Shown here: positions 2,814 through 16,105 of the stretch, piece after piece | How the letters are laid out: every line of letters begins with the position of its first letter | How positions within the stretch are numbered: the stretch's first letter is position 1 | NCBI GenBank assembly: GCA_003345545.1 | Contig: PRDH01000029.1 | Coordinates: 1-17,475, forward strand | Reading direction: 5' to 3' | Source: Candidatus Thorarchaeota archaeon | GTDB taxonomy: Archaea > Asgardarchaeota > Thorarchaeia > Thorarchaeales > Thorarchaeaceae | DNA: 17,475 bases | Made by a program: the position numbers and the translations under genes | The notes under the pieces: generated by a model | What the model saw: the letters and a program-made list of their open reading frames with translations, nothing else | Told to the model about the DNA's origin: nothing | The model's database searches: none

Positions 2814-5030
2814 TTGAACGAACCGGGAAATCAAGACACGCCAGAAGATGAGGATCCCGAGAGTCCGCGAGATTCAGATAGACCAATAGAGTTGCTCCCA
2901 AAGTCCCTATTGCCATACCATCCCCGCGTAGGTGACCCTCTCGACCTGCACGTCGACCTCAGCGTTGGAGTAGTCCTTGGGCGTTCGGAGTCATTCCATC
3001 GGAAGTACCACTCTGTAGGTCTGGGCATGGTGGGAGGTGTTACAGAGACCTCTGATGATGTTCTGACCTCACTCATGGGGATGCCCGTGAAACTTGACCT
3101 CATGAGCCCTCATGTCATGTTTGTTGCAGGAAAGAGGGGATCGGGAAAGAGCTATACGCTTGGAATCATTGCTGAGGAAATTGCCCTAGCCATGGAGCGC
3201 CGAGAGATTGAGGTTGCTGCAGTCGTAGTGGACACTGTGGATGTCTTTCGACAGATGGTTGATGCAAATGACGAGCAGGCAGATATTCTCAGGAAGTGGG
3301 GCTATGAGGCAAGGGGATTCCCGGTGAATGTCTACATACCCCGAAGGACATACGTAGGACTCCCTGAAGAGATAAAGAAGAAGGCTCGTCTCTTTCCATT
3401 GTCCATTGGGCCACGAGAGCTCTCCGTTTCAGACTGGGGATACGTACTGGAGAAGGGTGGTACACTCAGTACTGCTATGGAGAACTTGATAGCTGAAACC
3501 TTGGACGCTGTACGAAAGGGATACACCCTCGAGTCCGGAGAGCATATGCAGCTCAAGCGAGATTTCAGCATCACAGATTTGATCAACTGTATCGAGTCCA
3601 ATCCGACCATTGTCGAGTTCTACAAACCTGCTTCAAGGACTGCCATTATCCAGAGGCTACGGCGTGCTGATAGACTAGGAGTCTTCATTCCTGGCGGCAC
3701 AAGCGCTCAGGACTTAGCTGTCGCAGGGCAAATCACAGTCATTGATGTAGCGCCTCTCGGTTCGGATGCCGAGGCCGTGCTCGCAATTCTGACAAACATG
3801 CTGTGCCGTCAAGTCCTGACCTATCGTATGGCTTGGACCGATGAGGGTACGAGTGCGCGGGAAGAACTGCCACCCACCTGGTTAATCATTGATGAGGCCC
3901 ACACCCTTGTACCACGGTCAGGAGCTACCCCTGCCAAGGATGCGATTGTGAGCTATGCAAAGCTTGGACGAAGGTTTGGCTGTAGTCTTGTTCTTTGCAC
4001 ACAGCAACCATCAGCAGTGTCCGATGAAGCAATCTCACAAGCAGATATCATCATCTCTCACTCACTGTCCCATGATGATGACATTAGAGCTCTCCAACAT
4101 CGGGCTCCAGCTGTGATGCCAGATCAATTCCGCGATAAGGCGTTCATCAGCGGTCTTCCGCGAGGCGTTGCCCTGGTCTTCGACCAGACCACTGAGAACA
4201 GGAGGGGTTTCATCATGCAGGTCCGTCCGCGTCTCTCACAGCATGGAGGTACTGATCGACTATCAGGCCTCTTTGAAGCGGTCAAGCTCCTAATGCCAGA
4301 GGAGGCTTCTGAGGAAACAGCGCCAGCCGAAGAGCCCAAGGCGACTGAGCCAATTGAGGGATCAGCGGATGAGTACGAGGGTTCGGAAGAAGCATTTGCT
4401 GAGGAGTTGCCAGAAGTACCACGACCTCCGCTGAAGTTGAGCAAAGAGGACTGGCTGCTTCTCGATGAGTGGATGCGAGACTATGTCAAGACTCTCTTTG
4501 ACCACCAGAAGCAGGGCTTCTCCATTACCGATGAACCGTCGCCTCGCCTTGAGGAACCTGTCGTCGCAGAGGAAGTCATGCCTTTCGAAGTTGAAGTTGA
4601 AAGAATCAGGACTTCGGACTTTGACTCTTCAAGGGTACTCGTGAAAGCATTCGGTCCGGTTTCGAAGGAACTTCTCTCGAAGGCAATAACAAGGAAGGTT
4701 CTGTATAGTCCGGCATCGCATGGTTTTCTCTTCACTTCAGAACATGACATTCGGGATACTATTGTCGTGAACCGCGAAGACAGTGATGCGTCAGATCTCA
4801 TCAGCTTTGCTGCAAATGCAATAGATACAGCTGGCGCAGAGCTTGAGCAGATGATTCATGAAGATGGTTTCACTTTCGTCTGCTACCGACGAGAGGGCGT
4901 TCGCATAGTATTCTCTATTGCTAGCAGCCAGTCGTTATTGAGCTTACCAATTGTTGTCGTTGGTGTCAACCGAAAGTCAGTCATCTCCATTGCCGACAAG
5001 ATACGAGCTGTCCTTCGTGCTCCTAGCTGA
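2814..5030 (+). CDS. HerA/FtsK/VirB4-superfamily P-loop ATPase (DUF87-type) with acidic linker and extra C-terminal domain
   Basis: Walker A PHVMFVAGKRGSGKSYT, VVVD strand, Walker B WLIIDEAH, and the HerA-type LGRRFGCSLVLCTQQPS (Arg-finger region and TQ motif). An E/P-rich linker spans about aa 495-545. Confidence 0.88.
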   Translation: MNEPGNQDTPEDEDPESPRDSDRPIELLPKSLLPYHPRVGDPLDLHVDLSVGVVLGRSESFHRKYHSVGLGMVGGVTETSDDVLTSLMGMPVKLDLMSPHVMFVAGKRGSGKSYTLGIIAEEIALAMERREIEVAAVVVDTVDVFRQMVDANDEQADILRKWGYEARGFPVNVYIPRRTYVGLPEEIKKKARLFPLSIGPRELSVSDWGYVLEKGGTLSTAMENLIAETLDAVRKGYTLESGEHMQLKRDFSITDLINCIESNPTIVEFYKPASRTAIIQRLRRADRLGVFIPGGTSAQDLAVAGQITVIDVAPLGSDAEAVLAILTNMLCRQVLTYRMAWTDEGTSAREELPPTWLIIDEAHTLVPRSGATPAKDAIVSYAKLGRRFGCSLVLCTQQPSAVSDEAISQADIIISHSLSHDDDIRALQHRAPAVMPDQFRDKAFISGLPRGVALVFDQTTENRRGFIMQVRPRLSQHGGTDRLSGLFEAVKLLMPEEASEETAPAEEPKATEPIEGSADEYEGSEEAFAEELPEVPRPPLKLSKEDWLLLDEWMRDYVKTLFDHQKQGFSITDEPSPRLEEPVVAEEVMPFEVEVERIRTSDFDSSRVLVKAFGPVSKELLSKAITRKVLYSPASHGFLFTSEHDIRDTIVVNREDSDASDLISFAANAIDTAGAELEQMIHEDGFTFVCYRREGVRIVFSIASSQSLLSLPIVVVGVNRKSVISIADKIRAVLRAPS

Positions 5031-8979: not shown

Positions 8980-10695
8980 TCATAATGAGAAGTTGACGAA
9001 GATAGTGCCGCCATTCTTCATCTGACCAGTGTATGCGCGATTGTAGGGACCGAATAGATCACTGAAGCCTGAATTGATTGCCCACTCGATCCATGACCAT
9101 GAAGACTCTTGTCCTAGCTTGCCCTCGGCAAACTGACCAAAGGCCCAACTGAGATATCGTTCTAGGTCCATCCTGAGGCCTAGATGAGTTGCTGCTTCCT
9201 CTTTTGATGCGGCAGCGATTCTTGGCTCTATAGTTCTGAGTTCGCTATTGAGTTTGGCGTGACATTCCAGTATCAGATTCTCAAGGTTCTCAAGTTCCTG
9301 ATTCATCTCATCGAACTGGTTCTTCTTTCTGTACTTCGAAACTCTCCCCATGATATTGAACAAGTTCCTTCCCTGAAGAACCGGCATCTCTTTCCCTTCA
9401 AGTGATTTTGCCAATTGCTCATTCCAGGGAGTGTTGAAGTAGACCCGTGGATACTTGACGAACATAGGGAACGGGGCTGAGATTGCTCTCGCACTGGGTA
9501 TCACTTGTGCATAGTATGCTGTCTCGCCGGCACCTCCAACATGCGTGACGATTGGTATTATTGAGTCGATTGCTAATTGTCTGGAGTCTACGCGGAGCGA
9601 GATACTCCGAGCAATATCACCGAGATATGGTGTATCTGCGGATGTTTCAATCTCAATCTTCTCAGAGCAGGATGGGCAGGTTCCAGTGAGAAGGGCAGTA
9701 GTCCCTCTTTCCTCATAGTGAAACTCTGTTCTTGCTTTGTTGCAGGTCTCTCCGGGGCATTCGTAGAAGAATGGCACGTAGTCAGTTCCTCTGAGACCAA
9801 TTCCAGGATTGTATCCTTTCTCCTCGATCAGTGTGGTCACTTCATTGAACATGGCCAGGAATCTCTCCCGGTTCTCACGAGCCAGAAGGAACTCTAGACC
9901 CTCGACAAGAAGGTCTCTGATACCCTCAGAAGATGCTGAGAGCAATGGGATGCCCAAATCGCCTTCTATATTGAACAGCCTGCCCAGTGTTCGTGCTGCC
10001 CATTCTGCCAGAGTTGTGGAGTTGGTGTAACTCCACCGAAGAATCGACAAGGCCTGCTCAAGCCGCTCATCTAGAAGCGTTCTAGAAGATCCCTCTAGTG
10101 CTTTGAACATCGGCCTGTAGGTTGTCCTGATATCGTCCTCAACCTGATTGTACCAGTCTCTCGCTGGTAGGGGGAGCACACTCACTGGTGAGTTCTCATA
10201 GCCCTCAGGCACTGGAATGCTCACGAGTGAGCACTCTGAGCCCAGTACAGGTAGGCGGATATTCGTGAGTTCTGGCTGAACAATGTCATAGTCCGCAAGA
10301 CAGAAGAAGGGTGCAAGGTCAAGTCCTCTCTCAGCGCATAGACTGGCAAGTCGTCTTGCTGTTGCCGCCTTGTTCAGGACATACACAGGACCCCCCAGAA
10401 CCACAGTCTGGTGCGCCGACTCAATGGCTCCGTTCTTCAGAGAGCTGATACTGGATTTGGTGTCTTCTGTGAGGCATCCAAGGTCCCGATTCGAGGAGAT
10501 GAGGGCTCTCTCAAGAAGCTTCATCCGTTCGTCAATATGCCAGAGAGTCTTCTCATACTTCTTCATGAGCTCTGGCACTCGATCACAGATCCCATTCATT
10601 GTGAGCGGCGGACTATCATACAGTGTCTGAGCGAGCTTGGTGTCTTTCCCTTTCCAGACGAAGTCGTGATACACATCATAGACGCTCGGCTTCAC
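8980..10695 (-). CDS. bshC: Bacillithiol biosynthesis cysteine-adding enzyme BshC homolog
   Basis: SAHQTVVLGGPVYVLNKA matches BshC TGQQxGLFxGPLYxxxK. LADYD matches xEDHD. VGGAGETAYYAQV matches GGPGExAYxAQL. It also has a PR motif, a C-terminal coiled coil and GQES for LQER. 571 aa, directly downstream of bshA. Confidence 0.85.
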   Translation of the reverse strand: MKPSVYDVYHDFVWKGKDTKLAQTLYDSPPLTMNGICDRVPELMKKYEKTLWHIDERMKLLERALISSNRDLGCLTEDTKSSISSLKNGAIESAHQTVVLGGPVYVLNKAATARRLASLCAERGLDLAPFFCLADYDIVQPELTNIRLPVLGSECSLVSIPVPEGYENSPVSVLPLPARDWYNQVEDDIRTTYRPMFKALEGSSRTLLDERLEQALSILRWSYTNSTTLAEWAARTLGRLFNIEGDLGIPLLSASSEGIRDLLVEGLEFLLARENRERFLAMFNEVTTLIEEKGYNPGIGLRGTDYVPFFYECPGETCNKARTEFHYEERGTTALLTGTCPSCSEKIEIETSADTPYLGDIARSISLRVDSRQLAIDSIIPIVTHVGGAGETAYYAQVIPSARAISAPFPMFVKYPRVYFNTPWNEQLAKSLEGKEMPVLQGRNLFNIMGRVSKYRKKNQFDEMNQELENLENLILECHAKLNSELRTIEPRIAAASKEEAATHLGLRMDLERYLSWAFGQFAEGKLGQESSWSWIEWAINSGFSDLFGPYNRAYTGQMKNGGTIFVNFSL

Positions 10696-10703
10696 GATAA
10701 TAC

Positions 10704-10715
10704 GTCCTCCTCACC
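10704..10715 (-). promoter_or_regulatory. Shine-Dalgarno site (GGTGAGGAGGA) for bshC overlapping the bshA stop codon
   Basis: The minus strand reads cggTGAggaggacgtattatcGTG, which suggests a translationally coupled bshA-bshC operon. Confidence 0.65.
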
Positions 10716-11877
10716 GTTTGACGACTTCGTTGAACACATTCTCGTACATAGGAACAATCTTGTTGGCGTCAAAAACATTGACACGTTGTCGACCTGCCTT
10801 CGCCAGTCTCTTTCTCTCGCCCTCATTCTCAAGGAGGTGAAGAATTGCCTGCGCAAATTCCTCCTTCTCGAAGCCCTTCGTGACAATTCCATCCTTGTCT
10901 GCACGAACAAGCTCAGGAATTCCGCCTGCAGGTGTTGTAATCACAGGAAGACTACAGGCCATCGCCTCCAAGAGCGTCAGAGGCATTCCCTCAAGTGTCG
11001 AATTGAGCAAGAAGATGTCAGAGGAACACATGATTTCCTGCATGTTGCTTTTCACACCCAAGAGATGTACATTATCACACAGTTTCAGGTCCTCTATTCG
11101 CCGCTCGACGTCAATACGTGTGGGTCCATCGCCTGCAATCACGAGTCTTGCATTTGGGTTATGGTCTACGACAGTGCGCATGATCTCGACAAGTTCAACG
11201 ACACGTTTGACCTTTCGAAAATTGGAGGCGTGAAGCAATATCCTATCCTCTGGTTCTATCTCAAAGGCATCCTTCTCACTCCGCACTGATACACACCCCC
11301 TCTCAACAAGAAGTCTGATCCCTGAAACCTTGGAGAACTGCGTTGTATCAATGAAGTTCGGGATGACATGAATATCCCTCTTGATTCCGAGCTCTTTGTG
11401 AGCTTTGTCTGCTAGGAATTGGGAGACCGCAGTCACAGCATCAGCATTCTCCACGGTGTGCTGGACAACTGGCTTGTATGCAGGATCCTGACCTAGTGTA
11501 TGCACATCAGAGCCATGAAGTGTGACCACATAGGGAATCCCATTGATCTCACGAGCCATATATGCCGCCATCGCATGAGGAATCGCATAGTGCGCATGGA
11601 TGAGGTCCAACCCCGCATCCTTTGCAACCTTGACGATTTTTGATGTGAGCGCCATAGTATAGGGGGGTCCAATCGTGTCAAACAGAGGATAATCAAAGCT
11701 GTCCACAAGGTCGACATGGACGCCCTCTGTCTGCTGCCACATCAATGAGAAGGGTCTCTGATAGGTGATGAAGTGGATTATGTGTCCTTTGTTCGCCAAG
11801 TGTTGGCCGAGTCGGGTTGCAACATGACCGCTACCGCCAAATGAAGGGTAGAGATTCACACCAATTCGCATAGCCAT
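10711..11877 (-). CDS. bshA: N-acetyl-alpha-D-glucosaminyl L-malate synthase BshA (GT4 glycosyltransferase)
   Basis: BshA-diagnostic YPSFGGSGHVATRLG, HFITY, YPLF, HAHYAIPHA, TLHGSD and HASNFRKVKR, plus the GT4 motif EGMPLTLLEAMAC. Confidence 0.92.
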   Translation of the reverse strand: MAMRIGVNLYPSFGGSGHVATRLGQHLANKGHIIHFITYQRPFSLMWQQTEGVHVDLVDSFDYPLFDTIGPPYTMALTSKIVKVAKDAGLDLIHAHYAIPHAMAAYMAREINGIPYVVTLHGSDVHTLGQDPAYKPVVQHTVENADAVTAVSQFLADKAHKELGIKRDIHVIPNFIDTTQFSKVSGIRLLVERGCVSVRSEKDAFEIEPEDRILLHASNFRKVKRVVELVEIMRTVVDHNPNARLVIAGDGPTRIDVERRIEDLKLCDNVHLLGVKSNMQEIMCSSDIFLLNSTLEGMPLTLLEAMACSLPVITTPAGGIPELVRADKDGIVTKGFEKEEFAQAILHLLENEGERKRLAKAGRQRVNVFDANKIVPMYENVFNEVVKR

Positions 11878-11974
11878 ACCTTCTGACTGGTCTATTCCTG
11901 TTCCCCTTTAAGGCACTTGGTCTGCACAGTCGAACATGCCAAACCTTGATTAGATACTGAAAGAACACTCACAT

Positions 11975-12628
11975 ATGAGCTCTATCCTTGTTGTGGTTGC
12001 ACACCCCGATGACGAGAGTCTGGGTGCCGGCGGTACGATACGAAAACATGCTGACATGGGGATTCCTGTCGACGTGCACTGTATGACGGGCAATGGAATA
12101 AGGAACGACGAAATGAAGTCTGCATGCGCCCAGCTTGGTGTGCGGAACCTCTATCTAAGCGAGCGCGATGACTTTGCCATTGACATGAGCCTTCGAAATG
12201 AAGTCGTCGGAGCGATTCTCAAATCGCGTCCGAAGATAGTGATAACTCACTTCTCTGGAGACTACAATGTGAATCATCAACACTGCGCACAGATAGTCTT
12301 CGATGCTGTTGAATGGGCATCCCACACAACACTCTTTGATGATGCACACCGCGTTGAAAGAATCTACAACATGGAGATCAACACCTTGATTTCCCGACCC
12401 CACGTGTATGTTGATATTTCGGACTCGTTTGAGTATGCTTTCAACGCGATCAAAGAACACAAGTCACAGATTGAGAAAGCCGATCTCTTCTATGAGAAGC
12501 TCTACGATGCGAGGACACGTCTTCGCGGAGTCCAAGCGAAATGCGAGCGTGCTGAGGCCTTTTCGATTACCCTTCCTGAACATGCTGGACCGTTCTATAG
12601 AGAAAACAGCGTTGAAAGTCTTGTGTGA
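11975..12628 (+). CDS. bshB: PIG-L/LmbE-family deacetylase, probable BshB (GlcNAc-malate deacetylase)
   Basis: ILVVVAHPDDESLGAGGTI metal motif, RxxE...A...LG, HKSQ and RG...AEAF. Divergent from bshA across a 97-bp gap. Confidence 0.8.
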   Translation: MSSILVVVAHPDDESLGAGGTIRKHADMGIPVDVHCMTGNGIRNDEMKSACAQLGVRNLYLSERDDFAIDMSLRNEVVGAILKSRPKIVITHFSGDYNVNHQHCAQIVFDAVEWASHTTLFDDAHRVERIYNMEINTLISRPHVYVDISDSFEYAFNAIKEHKSQIEKADLFYEKLYDARTRLRGVQAKCERAEAFSITLPEHAGPFYRENSVESLV

Positions 12629-12646: not shown

Positions 12647-13033
12647 TTAGTCTGCCTTTCTCTTTCTGGCAGCTAGAAGTTGCTTGAGTTCGCCCATCAT
12701 GCTCATGCCTCCCCCTGGCGAGGGCGGTGGAGCTGTTGGGGCTCTTGCCATGCCAGCAATTGGCTGTCCTCCGGCTGCTGAGGGTCCTGCTGATATGGTT
12801 GCGCCACCAGAGGCGCGGCTCGAGAGAGAATCAATCCTTGATTCCAAAGCGCTGACTTGCGATTGGAGCTGAGCTGTTGTTGCCTGTAGATTGCTAATGG
12901 CTTCTGTGAGCTTAGTAGTGATGATACTCACAACTTCCCCGAGCTGGCGAATCTTCTGTGTATTTGGATCCTGAAGTGCCCACTCGAACTCCCCCATCAC
13001 AGCATCTTCAAGTTCCTTCTTCTCTTTGCTCAT
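12647..13033 (-). CDS. Small protein: coiled coil + Gly/Ala/Pro-rich linker + C-terminal basic amphipathic helix; candidate actin-regulator-like protein
   Basis: 128-aa ORF with its own GGAG site and TATA. Heptads span about aa 27-74, followed by APTAPPPSP and a terminal GGGMSMMGELKQLLAARKRKAD. The CDS call is solid; the function is inference. Confidence 0.8.
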   Translation of the reverse strand: MSKEKKELEDAVMGEFEWALQDPNTQKIRQLGEVVSIITTKLTEAISNLQATTAQLQSQVSALESRIDSLSSRASGGATISAGPSAAGGQPIAGMARAPTAPPPSPGGGMSMMGELKQLLAARKRKAD

Positions 13034-13076
13034 TGGTCTAGCTCCATCAACTGTCTGAAGAGGTCGCGGAATCCGC

Positions 13077-13088
13077 TATAAATCTTGT
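13077..13088 (-). promoter_or_regulatory. Putative TATA box (TTTATA) with purine-rich BRE for the 128-aa gene
   Basis: The minus strand reads acaagaTTTATAgc 44-55 nt upstream of ATG 13033. Confidence 0.55.
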
Positions 13089-13111: not shown

Positions 13112-14488
13112 TCATATCGATTTGATTGTCTTCTCAACAGCAAGCTTCGCTGTATTCGATACTTTCTTGACCAGCGCCTCTGTGGGACCCTCACACGTGA
13201 TTCTTATCACCGGTTCTGTACCTGACGGTCGTACTAGGACCCATCCCTCTTTTAGAGTAATCCCAATGCCGTCCACTGTTAGAACCTGCACGACATTCTC
13301 CAGTGCCTTAGGGAGCACCTCTGCAAGAGCTTCCATTACCTGTGCCTTCTTCTCATTTGGACATTTCAGTTTGGTCTTCACTAGAGGATATGCTGGAATG
13401 CCTGAGATCAGCTCTCCAAGACTCTTTCCTGTTCTTGCCATTTTTTCAAGAATCCTGCAGGCTGTGAGGAATGGCTCCGGCGCAAGGTGGAACTCTGGGA
13501 GAATGAACACACCACAGGCCTCGCCACCCATGACTGCATCAGTTTCCTTTACTTTGACTGCAACTTGGATATCCCCCACAGGTGTTCGAATTATCTTGCC
13601 GCCTCTTTTCTTGACGGTTTCGTCAAGCACCAATGAGCTATCCACAGTGGTGACCAAAGTCCCCCCCTTCGTAGTGCCAAGATAGTCTTGAGCGAGAAGC
13701 GCAATCGTTCTATCTCCTCTGACTACCTCGCCCTTCTCAGTCACAAACACCACCCTATCAGCATCACCATCATGAGCGATACCAAGGTCTGCACCAATCT
13801 CCTTCACCATCTGAATGAGATCACCAAGGGAGCTCTCATCTGGTTCAGAAACTCTTCCTGGAAAGTGTCCGTCCGGCTGACTGTTTATCGTGACGATCTT
13901 GCTAGCAAGTCTCTGCATGAGATATGGAGTGAGAACAGATGCTGCGCCGTTACCCGGGTCAACTACTATTGTGAATGACTTCGACCTTATCAGCTCTGCA
14001 TCGCACCTTGCTAGGATTGCCTCGATGTGTTCGTCAGCAGCGCTTTCTGTTGTGGACTCCTTTCCCAGCTGATTCCAGGGTGCAACCTTGAATTTCCTTG
14101 ATACATAGATCCGCTCAATCTTCTCTTCCTCTTCGGGTGTAAAGCCCATACTATTCTTAGACCAGAATTTTACTCCCGTATACTCTGGTGGGTTGTGCGA
14201 TGCAGTAACCATGACGCCCGCATCGAGTCTTCTGTTCATCACTGTGAAGGCCAGCGTAGGTGTCGGGATGATGCCTGTTCTGACTACGTTCACCCCTGTG
14301 GATAGCAAACCAGCAGAGAGCGCATCGGCGACCATGAGCCCTGTGGTTCTCGTGTCTCGTGCTAGGAGGACCGTTCCTCCACCCAGCAGTGTTCCGAGTG
14401 CTTTTCCTAAGTCCAATGCCATCTCAAGGTCGAACTCTTTTCCGTAGACCTTTCGCACGCCCGTTGTTCCGAAGAGTCTGTCCGCCAT
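13112..14488 (-). CDS. glmM: Phosphoglucosamine mutase / phosphomannomutase-phosphoglucomutase (alpha-D-phosphohexomutase)
   Basis: RLFGTTGVR, phosphoserine loop VTASHNP, metal loop DGDADR, GGEACG and VRPSGTEP. Sugar specificity is not certain. The start could be 14506. Confidence 0.85.
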   Translation of the reverse strand: MADRLFGTTGVRKVYGKEFDLEMALDLGKALGTLLGGGTVLLARDTRTTGLMVADALSAGLLSTGVNVVRTGIIPTPTLAFTVMNRRLDAGVMVTASHNPPEYTGVKFWSKNSMGFTPEEEEKIERIYVSRKFKVAPWNQLGKESTTESAADEHIEAILARCDAELIRSKSFTIVVDPGNGAASVLTPYLMQRLASKIVTINSQPDGHFPGRVSEPDESSLGDLIQMVKEIGADLGIAHDGDADRVVFVTEKGEVVRGDRTIALLAQDYLGTTKGGTLVTTVDSSLVLDETVKKRGGKIIRTPVGDIQVAVKVKETDAVMGGEACGVFILPEFHLAPEPFLTACRILEKMARTGKSLGELISGIPAYPLVKTKLKCPNEKKAQVMEALAEVLPKALENVVQVLTVDGIGITLKEGWVLVRPSGTEPVIRITCEGPTEALVKKVSNTAKLAVEKTIKSI

Positions 14489-14714
14489 GGAGCTCACAGG
14501 TACCATGTCTGTATGCTCTAGAGAAAAAGATACCTGAACAATACATTACAGTGAAATTGGGTCGTTATGCGATTGTCACTCGTCCTCAAACCAATGATCG
14601 AGCACCCCAAGGAGTTCAATAGGTTACTGCGCGAATTCGTTTCTTGGGTTGAGGAAGAGGGTTAGCTCACCGTCTCTCACCTTTGTTCTGTTCTGGTCTC
14701 GTTGCTCAATATAT

Positions 14715-14729: not shown

Positions 14730-14884
14730 GTGCCATCAGTAACTTAGGCTTCGAATGCGCAACCACTGTTCAGGCCGATAGACTGCATGGGGATCTTTCA
14801 TGAATACACACAGAGACTCTTCATATGTCAATGGCGTAGCCACGTATGCATTCCACATCGATTCTACAGCTGGAGGACTGCGCT

Positions 14885-15433
14885 ATGAGTAGCACCTATG
14901 ACTTCTTGTTCAAAATCGTGGTCTTAGGAGAGGGCGCAGTGGGAAAGACAGCCATAGTCACCCGCTTTTCTCACGGATTCTTCAGGACTGATTACAAGAC
15001 TACTATTGGCTCCCAGTTTGCTGTCAAGAATGTTGAAATTGTAAAGTCGGAGCGCGAAAAGGTGACCGTGAAACTGCAAATCTGGGATGTTGCAGGGCAG
15101 TCTCGGTTTCAGATTCTCAGACCCATGTACTATAGGGGTTCGAGCGGTGGGATACTCGTCTATGATGTGACGAGACGAAGAACCTTCATCGTGCTCCAGG
15201 AGTGGCTAGAGGAACTCCACAAGGCGCTTGGAAAGGATATACCACTGATTCTAGTAGCGAACAAGACCGATCTTCCCGACCGCGTGGTTGAACCATCAGA
15301 GGGACGCGAATTCGCGGACAGCCGTAGCATGCCATATGTCGAGTCGAGCGCAAAGACTGGAGAAGGAATCATCGATATCTTTGAGCAGCTTGCTAGGGTC
15401 CTCGTCGCTGATCGTGAGCAGAAGGAAATGTAG
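14885..15433 (+). CDS. Rab-like Ras-superfamily small GTPase (eukaryotic signature protein)
   Basis: G1 GEGAVGKT, G2 TIG, G3 WDVAGQ, G4 NKTD and G5 SSAK. Rab-family motifs KLQIW, YYRGS and LVYDVT, and a YDFLFKIVVLG N-terminus. GGAGGA at 14872-14877 supports ATG 14885. Confidence 0.95.
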   Translation: MSSTYDFLFKIVVLGEGAVGKTAIVTRFSHGFFRTDYKTTIGSQFAVKNVEIVKSEREKVTVKLQIWDVAGQSRFQILRPMYYRGSSGGILVYDVTRRRTFIVLQEWLEELHKALGKDIPLILVANKTDLPDRVVEPSEGREFADSRSMPYVESSAKTGEGIIDIFEQLARVLVADREQKEM

Positions 15434-15520: not shown

Positions 15521-16105
15521 ATGACAGACCCCGATGAATCCTATCCCGTAAACACCATCCCTGCACTCGCCTGGGCACTGGACCTGTACTTCAAAGCTGG
15601 AGGTGCTTTCAAGGAAGGCGGTGTAGTCGAGCTTGTGTTTCCTGCTGGCAATCACAAGGAAGTCATGAGAAAGAAGGGAGAGCATGAGAATATCCTCTGG
15701 ATGTCAAAGAAGAATCTCTATGTGAGAGCTCGGTGCAACTACGATAAGGGATGCAGCTTCAACTCTGAGAGAATCGACGGCGGAAACAGAGAGGCTCTGA
15801 AAGGTCTGTCATGGGACCAATCAAATGACCGTGCCTTCTTCATCGCCGTGCGAAAATGGTTGATTCGATTGAAGTTCGACTTTGTCACTCTCATCCGTGC
15901 TCTGAATACAATGTGCGACAAACGGGTTGAGTTACCGCTGACCACCAAGTATGGCCGCTCGTTCAAGAAGTTCGATGAATATCGCAAGAACAAGTGGCCC
16001 GAAGACGCAACACCCGACAACAGGGATAGATTTCTCGAAGAGGTTCTCGTTCGGGTGTCTTTCTGGATACAATCTGCAGCCCAAGTCAACGCTCTCAAGG
16101 ACTGA
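15521..16105 (+). CDS. Hypothetical soluble protein (194 aa)
   Basis: Clean ORF with globular-like composition, co-directional with its neighbours. No motif recognised. Confidence 0.8.
   Translation: MTDPDESYPVNTIPALAWALDLYFKAGGAFKEGGVVELVFPAGNHKEVMRKKGEHENILWMSKKNLYVRARCNYDKGCSFNSERIDGGNREALKGLSWDQSNDRAFFIAVRKWLIRLKFDFVTLIRALNTMCDKRVELPLTTKYGRSFKKFDEYRKNKWPEDATPDNRDRFLEEVLVRVSFWIQSAAQVNALKD

Follow-up and report, generated by a model that had tools for sequence, protein, structure and literature searches.

The gene at positions 12647 to 13033 (minus strand) encodes a 128-amino-acid protein that belongs to a narrow, unnamed and undescribed family restricted to Asgard archaea. Its plan follows the logic of the WAVE, WASH, WASP and VASP proteins, though the protein is not a member of their families: an N-terminal helical stalk is joined by a disordered tether to a short C-terminal tail, and that tail is probably a protein-docking motif. 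Actin regulation is a reasonable hypothesis for the family and not a finding. Actin is, tentatively, the most likely single partner of the tail, and a different conserved partner is, taken collectively, about as likely.

A stand-alone gene for a three-part protein

The window, by which we mean the whole 17,475-nucleotide stretch of Thorarchaeota DNA that was analysed, carries at 12647..13033 (minus strand) an ATG-to-TAA open reading frame, stop codon included, that has about 279 close homologs. Comparison with 12 Thorarchaeota orthologs gave pairwise dN/dS values of 0.04-0.21, with dS saturated, and the protein is therefore under purifying selection. This is a real protein-coding gene, and in that respect the earlier note on this DNA, which had described a stand-alone gene of 128 codons for amino acids, was right. 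That note had also given the gene its own TATA box and Shine-Dalgarno sequence. Reading the sequence, we found a TATA-like TTTATAG at 13076..13082 (minus strand; -49 to -43 relative to the ATG) and a possible Shine-Dalgarno GGAG at 13042..13045 (minus strand; -12 to -9). The two elements would suit an archaeal TATA box and ribosome-binding site, and their roles as promoter and Shine-Dalgarno sequence are plausible.

An AlphaFold2 model built with a 21-sequence alignment divides the protein into a stalk, a tether and a tail. The stalk begins with helix 1 (aa 3-20; 12974..13027, minus strand), which holds an invariant EFEWAL block (alignments A1 and A3), and continues with a long helix 2 (aa 23-75; 12809..12967, minus strand) predicted with pLDDT values of 90-96 (above 90 for aa 31-70), for which the only Pfam matches are of a non-specific coiled-coil kind. 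The first half of helix 2 is invariant in the Thor lineage (IRQLGEVVSIITTKL) and the second half is a variable heptad coiled coil. The tether is a disordered stretch rich in Gly, Ala and Pro (aa 76-111; 12701..12808, minus strand; pLDDT below 50 for aa 77-110) whose length and proline content differ between lineages in the family alignments. It contains a short proline run, APTAPPPSP (aa 98-106; 12716..12742, minus strand), that is itself variable, P99 and P102 being its only near-invariant residues in the Thor alignment. The last element is a terminal helix (aa 112-127, MMGELKQLLAARKRK; 12653..12700, minus strand) that the model and its family-wide conservation mark as a putative family docking motif; it has a net charge of +4 and, with a hydrophobic moment of 0.19, is weakly amphipathic. 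The extreme C-terminus reads ...ARKRKAD and the sole Trp is W18.

Two blocks are thus invariant in the Thor lineage, the N-terminal EFEWAL..DP..IRQLGEVVSIITTKL and the tail GGGMSMMGELKxLLAARRRK (A1 and A3), while variation is seen in the linker and in the heptad region of the stalk. A Foldseek search of the PDB with the model of the 128-aa protein returned no match. The anatomy agrees for the most part with what had been read from the DNA beforehand, namely an N-terminal helix and coiled coil (placed at aa 14-74), a flexible Gly/Ala/Pro linker and an end that is basic instead of an acidic, Trp-containing tail. Two of the earlier descriptions need to be qualified: the proline motif is present but its exact sequence is not conserved, and the terminal helix is indeed basic but only weakly amphipathic.

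An undescribed family confined to Asgard archaea

A word-indexed search returned 279 near-full-length relatives with 60-97% identity, nearly all of them from the Thor lineage, and the close homologs are labelled Candidatus Thorarchaeota. An exhaustive phmmer search of 1.84 billion representative proteins yielded just 14 matches, none clearly outside Asgard, and unnamed Asgard clusters were the sole result of an Atlas feature search. We found no publication describing the family in our literature search. A family profile, which is biased towards Thor sequences, matched 259 of 400 Asgard genomes, including 79 of the 85 in the Thor family, and many non-Thor families were matched at E-values of 1e-8 to 1e-17. 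Full-length members occur in Loki-type lineages and in those that we label f14-f17, f28 and f30.

The distant members are proteins of 120-170 aa that share one plan: a helical hairpin with the pattern EEF...P...E.V..L..V.E.I at the N-terminus, a coiled coil, a proline-rich disordered stretch and the tail. In members from two single-contig genomes (4.4 and 6.0 Mb) that we infer to be of Loki type, the disordered stretch carries two or three PPPPPG runs. The earlier note had let its proposal hang on whether homologs keep the three-part architecture and whether they occur widely in prokaryotes that lack actin. The architecture is kept across Asgard lineages down to about 23% identity, and the phmmer search of 1.84 billion representatives gave no sign of a spread among actin-less prokaryotes.

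The genome that contains the window has genes for an actin (442 bits; identity to eukaryotic actins about 60%), for a gelsolin of two domains and for two ESCRT-III proteins. The Pfam model detects no profilin in it, which does not imply absence, Asgard profilins being divergent. Three small genomes with true members of the family, G300, G307 and G008, gave no detectable actin. Same-genus assemblies of G300 and G307 do have actin and these two genomes are 77-82% complete, so that incompleteness of the assemblies explains the missing gene in both (congeners of G008 lay outside the comparison). The occurrence of family members in actin-less archaea is not supported by this sample. To our knowledge essentially all Asgard archaea have actin, and for this reason co-occurrence of the family with actin is little informative either way.

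The tail as a probable portable docking peptide

The tail is the best-conserved part of the family and is conserved far beyond the stalk. Its consensus is P-x-S-[LA]-R-x-x-[IL]-[MQ]-x-E-L-K-x-L-F-x-[KR]-[RK]-[RK] (alignments A4 and A7), a shorter form of it being R-x-x-[IL]-M-x-E-L-K-x-L-[FL]-x-[KR]-R-R, and across the whole family only E115, L116, K117 and L119 are near-invariant (A4 and A7). The basic run that follows E-L-K-x-L-F is the least conserved part of the tail and is replaced by KRRTDD, SRMRSR or TKLKTQ in other lineages. Most members have tails with a net charge of +3 to +4; some Loki-type tails end in DDDDDD and have a net charge of 0. The hydrophobic moment of the tail lies between 0.14 and 0.21 across members and its mean hydrophobicity is negative.

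The motif also occurs in other protein contexts. It lies internally, directly after SAPPPPG, in a 705-aa protein that has a transmembrane segment of its own; a 310-aa paralog from a 5.8-Mb genome has three copies of it, one N-terminal, one internal and one C-terminal; and it is fused behind HEAT-like repeats in a 410-aa paralog. Its presence inside a membrane protein and in triplicate in one paralog suggests that the tail behaves as a portable docking peptide and not as a membrane anchor, and the fixed adjacency of charged and hydrophobic residues in E-L-K points to a protein groove as its binding surface rather than a lipid one. A sequence search of the PDB with the tail profile found just a designed peptide (E 4). 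In this Thor genome the motif is present in a single copy. Elsewhere there is also a 338-aa coiled-coil paralog with an internal copy of the motif. The loci of these motif-bearing paralogs are L057 (G128:C1:567353-570412), L059, L040 and L041.

These features bear on two other accounts of the end helix. It might be a membrane-targeting helix of the MinD or FtsA type that pins the stalk to the inner membrane face by way of the spacer, and such an account expects a C-terminal helix with a basic cluster behind it, a form that the tail has, its charge being +3 to +4 in most members; the Loki-type members also adjoin a gene for a BAR-like protein that presumably binds membranes. The low hydrophobic moment and negative mean hydrophobicity speak against it, as do the Loki-type tails that carry no net charge and end in DDDDDD, the strict conservation of E-L-K, which is atypical of lipid-binding helices, and the reuse of the motif both in a protein already anchored by a transmembrane segment and three times over in a soluble paralog. 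We regard membrane targeting as improbable. Alternatively, the basic tail might bind the ribosome or nucleic acid, with the remaining parts acting as spacer and oligomeriser. The Arg/Lys run ARRRK of the Thor tails would suit such a role, but it is the basic run that varies most while the E-L-K-x-L-F core is invariant, and this makes the account very unlikely. The docking reading is the one that we prefer.

Comparison with known actin-binding and other modules

The earlier note had proposed that the protein is an actin regulator of the WASP, WAVE, WASH or VASP kind. No WH2, WHD, EVH1, VASP_tetra or other actin-related Pfam match was found for the Thor protein at E <=10, its only Pfam matches being to sub-threshold generic coiled coils; one relative matched CCDC53 (E 0.13). 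The hmmscan was applied also to seven relatives and to three tails in isolation, and it was likewise negative at E <=10 for WH2 (PF02205) and for every other actin-related family, with the proviso that the HMMER filters may drop very weak matches. The LKK[TV] motif is absent from every aligned member, the tail reading ...ELKQLLAARKRKAD, and the Asgard tail profile gives the WH2-like GAB of VASP a score of -8.7 bits. EVH1 gave no Pfam match, and the N-terminus is modelled as a helical hairpin. Nothing matched the WHD/SHD or WAHD1 assembly domains. The features of a WCA region are missing too: the C-terminus is basic, W18 is the only Trp and there is no WH2 match. Membership of the WH2, WASP, WAVE, WASH or VASP families is ruled out on these grounds (no Pfam match, no LKK[TV], no EVH1, no acidic Trp tail). 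What stands of the proposal is the three-part architecture, which is real and conserved; the tie by homology does not.

The likeness to those families is one of plan. In WASP, WAVE and WASH the parts come in the same order, with an N-terminal helical assembly region, a proline-rich region and a C-terminal short helix, although the Asgard protein has no WH2, no central region or acidic Trp tail, and no WHD or WAHD. The EVH2 part of Ena/VASP (PMC10340426) resembles the 128-aa protein in having a coiled coil that oligomerises, as is predicted for the Asgard one, a proline-rich region and a short helix with a basic run, and M, E, L and ARRRK of its F-actin-binding motif (FAB) align with Asgard tails without a gap. 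The differences are that the Asgard protein has neither EVH1 nor a WH2-like GAB and shows no detectable sequence homology, and that the coiled coil of Ena/VASP is C-terminal, right-handed and tetramerising (VASP_tetra) whereas the Asgard one lies N-terminal to the proline-rich region and gives no VASP_tetra match.

We scored the human VASP FAB (residues 259-278, taken from PMC10340426) with position matrices made from Asgard tails alone. It reached 22 bits with all rows, 18.7 bits with the non-Thor rows and 24 bits with the Thor rows only, and the best of 1.1 million windows from the archaeon's own genome reached 18.4, 18.3 and 23.4 bits, respectively, so that the FAB lies just above the own-genome background with each of the three matrices. 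The score divides into 10.7 bits from the helix and 11.8 bits from the ARRRK run. When the helix part is taken alone it is matched or beaten by 73 of the 1.1 million background windows, and L116, K117 and L119 of the family face M, N and M in the FAB. The expected frequency by chance is about 2^-22 per window, which corresponds to a few equally good matches per eukaryotic proteome. The resemblance, a matter of sequence scores, appears to be real but moderate, half of it coming from the basic run. Its weight is raised because VASP, in whose actin-binding motif it falls, likewise has a proline-rich region and an oligomerising coiled coil, and lowered because the comparison was picked out from among all known motifs.

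A similar logic is seen in the bacterial cell-division protein FtsZ, where a self-associating domain is followed by a long, variable, disordered linker, a short conserved docking peptide and a variable basic end. The C-terminal linker and peptide of FtsZ share this logic with the Asgard family; the sequences are unrelated and a GTPase domain is missing from the Asgard protein. FtsA, ZipA and SepF, to which the FtsZ peptide binds, are not implied as partners of the Asgard tail.

A reading of the tail as an ESCRT-III interaction motif of the MIM type, (D/E)xxLxxRLxxL(K/R), is not supported: the hydrophobic spacing can be made to fit, but the charges run the opposite way. The C-terminal helices of both ESCRT-III proteins in this genome are acidic and do not resemble the basic tail.

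Gene neighbourhoods and the BAR-like neighbour in Loki-type genomes

Directly upstream of the gene lies one for a protein of the phosphoglucosamine/phosphoglucomutase family (GlmM-like; 13112..14506, minus strand; Pfam PGM_PMM I-IV and synteny). The gene sits between GlmM-like and BshB-like genes in all Thor loci examined, down to 45% identity, and it faces the BshB/BshA/BshC-like cluster there. A bacillithiol-type gene set that occupies 8980-12628 and 13112-14506 of the window is conserved across Thor genera; its members are BshC-like (PF10079, 52 bits), a GT4 glycosyltransferase (BshA-like), a PIG-L deacetylase (BshB-like) and the GlmM-like mutase. Outside Thor the neighbours are unrelated and include BAR-like, Elf1-like, radical SAM, Pelota, molybdopterin oxidoreductase and LarA-like genes. 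Actin, profilin and gelsolin were never among the neighbours of family genes at the loci examined.

The constancy of the Thor locus raises the possibility that the protein serves the sugar/thiol pathway (GlmM, this gene, BshB, BshA, BshC), for example as an assembly or regulatory subunit. One metagenomic ORF fits this idea: P0266, of 472 aa on a contig of 2127 bp, joins the C-terminal domains of a GlmM-like mutase to a protein of the 128-aa type, and it was the one longer or fused form in a set of 5.8 billion proteins, the fused and multi-motif paralogs described above having come from genome searches. Either the two parts are truly fused or a frameshift in this short contig has joined them. 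A single example that may be such an artefact carries little against the unrelated neighbourhoods outside Thor, and a coiled coil with a disordered tether is unlike the architecture of an enzyme subunit; a role confined to this pathway therefore seems to us far-fetched. In a 4.4-Mb Loki-type genome, a family member is immediately followed by two genes for hexapeptide-repeat transferases (L025:3567-5841), and this locus and the Thor GlmM hint at a recurrent loose link to amino-sugar nucleotide genes that may be coincidence.

Further upstream in the window, a Ras-family small GTPase (167 bits) is encoded at 14846-15433 and a 194-aa protein that belongs to no family at 15521-16105, and the same pair is found near the gene in another Thor genus (L003). 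The 194-aa product was considered as a BAR-like protein and rejected.

More than 45 genomes of the largest Loki-type family have a gene for a 206-aa protein upstream of the family gene, at a distance of 100-190 bp. Three other families also keep the pair side by side but differ in its order or orientation, and three different arrangements are seen overall. The 206-aa neighbour (L027:5242-5862, L024:5253-5873 and L028:5248-5868) has no Pfam family. AlphaFold2 models it, with a pLDDT of 90, as three long helices (6-70, 78-148 and 153-205), and the top rows of a Foldseek search with it are nearly all BAR proteins: arfaptin, FAM92A, SNX-BAR, Lsp1/Pil1, endophilin and I-BAR. TM-scores to arfaptin chains range from about 0.4 to 0.67, the highest being to arfaptin-2 (Foldseek; 0.6-0.67 among the top rows), and VIA-align Z-scores are 10-13.5 over about 186 residues, a level at which long helical bundles can match by shape alone and without kinship. 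The model of this neighbour appears to place the Loki-type proteins in a membrane-shaping context. Two families have the BAR-like gene in 13 of 14 and 122 of 135 genomes, respectively, and the 85 Thor genomes all lack it; as the tail is invariant in Thor, the BAR-like protein is therefore not a universal partner of the tail. The pairing recalls IRSp53 or MIM with VASP or WAVE, and arfaptin, in which eukaryotic BAR-domain proteins are coupled to proline-rich actin regulators. It differs from them in that the Asgard pair has no SH3 domain and in that the BAR-like gene is missing from Thor, this genome included.

Actin and other possible partners

Asgard archaea form actin-based protrusions and the regulators described to date are profilins and gelsolins, with no Asgard factor described that nucleates, elongates, bundles or anchors filaments (bioRxiv 10.1101/2025.11.30.690169; PMC12050087). 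Thor and Heimdall profilins bind polyproline weakly, and Loki profilins are reported not to bind it (PMC8410842); it is the Loki lineage that has the richest proline runs.

A published co-immunoprecipitation with Lokiactin from L. ossiferum significantly enriched actin, an Arf GTPase, a profilin and five gelsolin-type proteins, and it detected two BAR proteins without significance (bioRxiv 10.1101/2025.11.30.690169). We took a 6.0-Mb genome (G138) to be Lokiarchaeum ossiferum, its actin and gelsolin genes agreeing in order and sizes, and interpolated the locus number of the family ortholog from three anchors: actin (03343) at 3.925 Mb, 2DGel2 (02589) at 3.040 Mb and 2DGel1 (04136) at 4.784 Mb. 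The anchors give about 0.85-0.92 genes per kb and place the ortholog, at 2.629 Mb, near 02235, +/-10. Identifiers 02220-02249 are absent among the listed co-IP rows, which extend down to a log2 ratio of -1.06 in Supplementary Table 2 with 841 further rows beyond them, and several of them are present in the proteome sheet. With an indirect mapping, rows that are listed in part and the chance that low-affinity multivalent binding could be lost, the co-IP amounts to weak negative evidence on actin.

It is quite possible, though short of probable, that the scaffold and docking peptide are as described and that the tail engages a partner other than actin, such as a small GTPase, an ESCRT or cell-division component, a chaperone or a ribosome-associated factor, or that in Loki-type lineages it forms a complex with the BAR-like neighbour. 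The evidence for portable docking applies to these partners equally and none of it is specific to actin; the listed co-IP rows give no sign of actin association, and the resemblance to the VASP FAB is only moderate. A GTPase is suggested by two further facts: the closest structural matches of the BAR-like protein are arfaptins, which bind Arf, Arl and Rac GTPases, and the Ras-family GTPase gene lies 1.8 kb from the gene in the window and likewise near it in another Thor genus. Against this, the acidic tails of the ESCRT-III proteins leave a MIM-type reading unsupported, and the BAR-like protein, found in none of the 85 Thor genomes, cannot be universal.

The scheme that we favour is as follows. 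The N-terminal helical hairpin runs into the coiled coil of what is probably a small oligomerising scaffold, and a disordered Pro/Gly/Ala tether of 35-100 residues leads to the end helix and would give reach to the docking. The end helix, a putative portable docking peptide, would bind a highly conserved cytoplasmic protein, and the coiled coil would make that docking multivalent. The single most likely partner is, tentatively, actin: the tail might bind filaments or monomers of actin much as the Ena/VASP F-actin-binding motif does, in which case the oligomer could bundle or tether filaments or feed their ends. The proline runs may recruit profilin-actin in those lineages whose profilin binds polyproline, and in Loki-type archaea the protein may act with the BAR-like product of the neighbouring gene at curved membranes.

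In its fullest form this scheme would make the family a forerunner in archaea, or an analogue, of actin assembly factors of the Ena/VASP type, its proline runs loading profilin-actin, its tail holding filaments or their ends and, in Lokiarchaeia, the BAR-like partner coupling membrane curvature to actin growth. We consider this doubtful; if true, it would fill an apparent gap in Asgard actin systems, that of a factor for elongation or bundling. An actin partner would bear on the origin of the eukaryotic actin-membrane machinery, and any other partner would still define a new system of short linear motifs in archaea, organisms in which they have been little studied. The family is in either case a cheap and concrete test case, consisting of one 15-residue peptide and one protein of 128-152 aa.

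Two other genes of the window are of separate interest. A 124-aa winged-helix protein encoded at 929-1303 has MarR-type HTH matches and a sub-threshold match to EAP30/Vps36 (E 5e-4), and it may be a winged helix of the ESCRT-II kind or simply a regulator. A 738-aa ATPase of the HerA/DUF87 type is encoded at 2814-5030.
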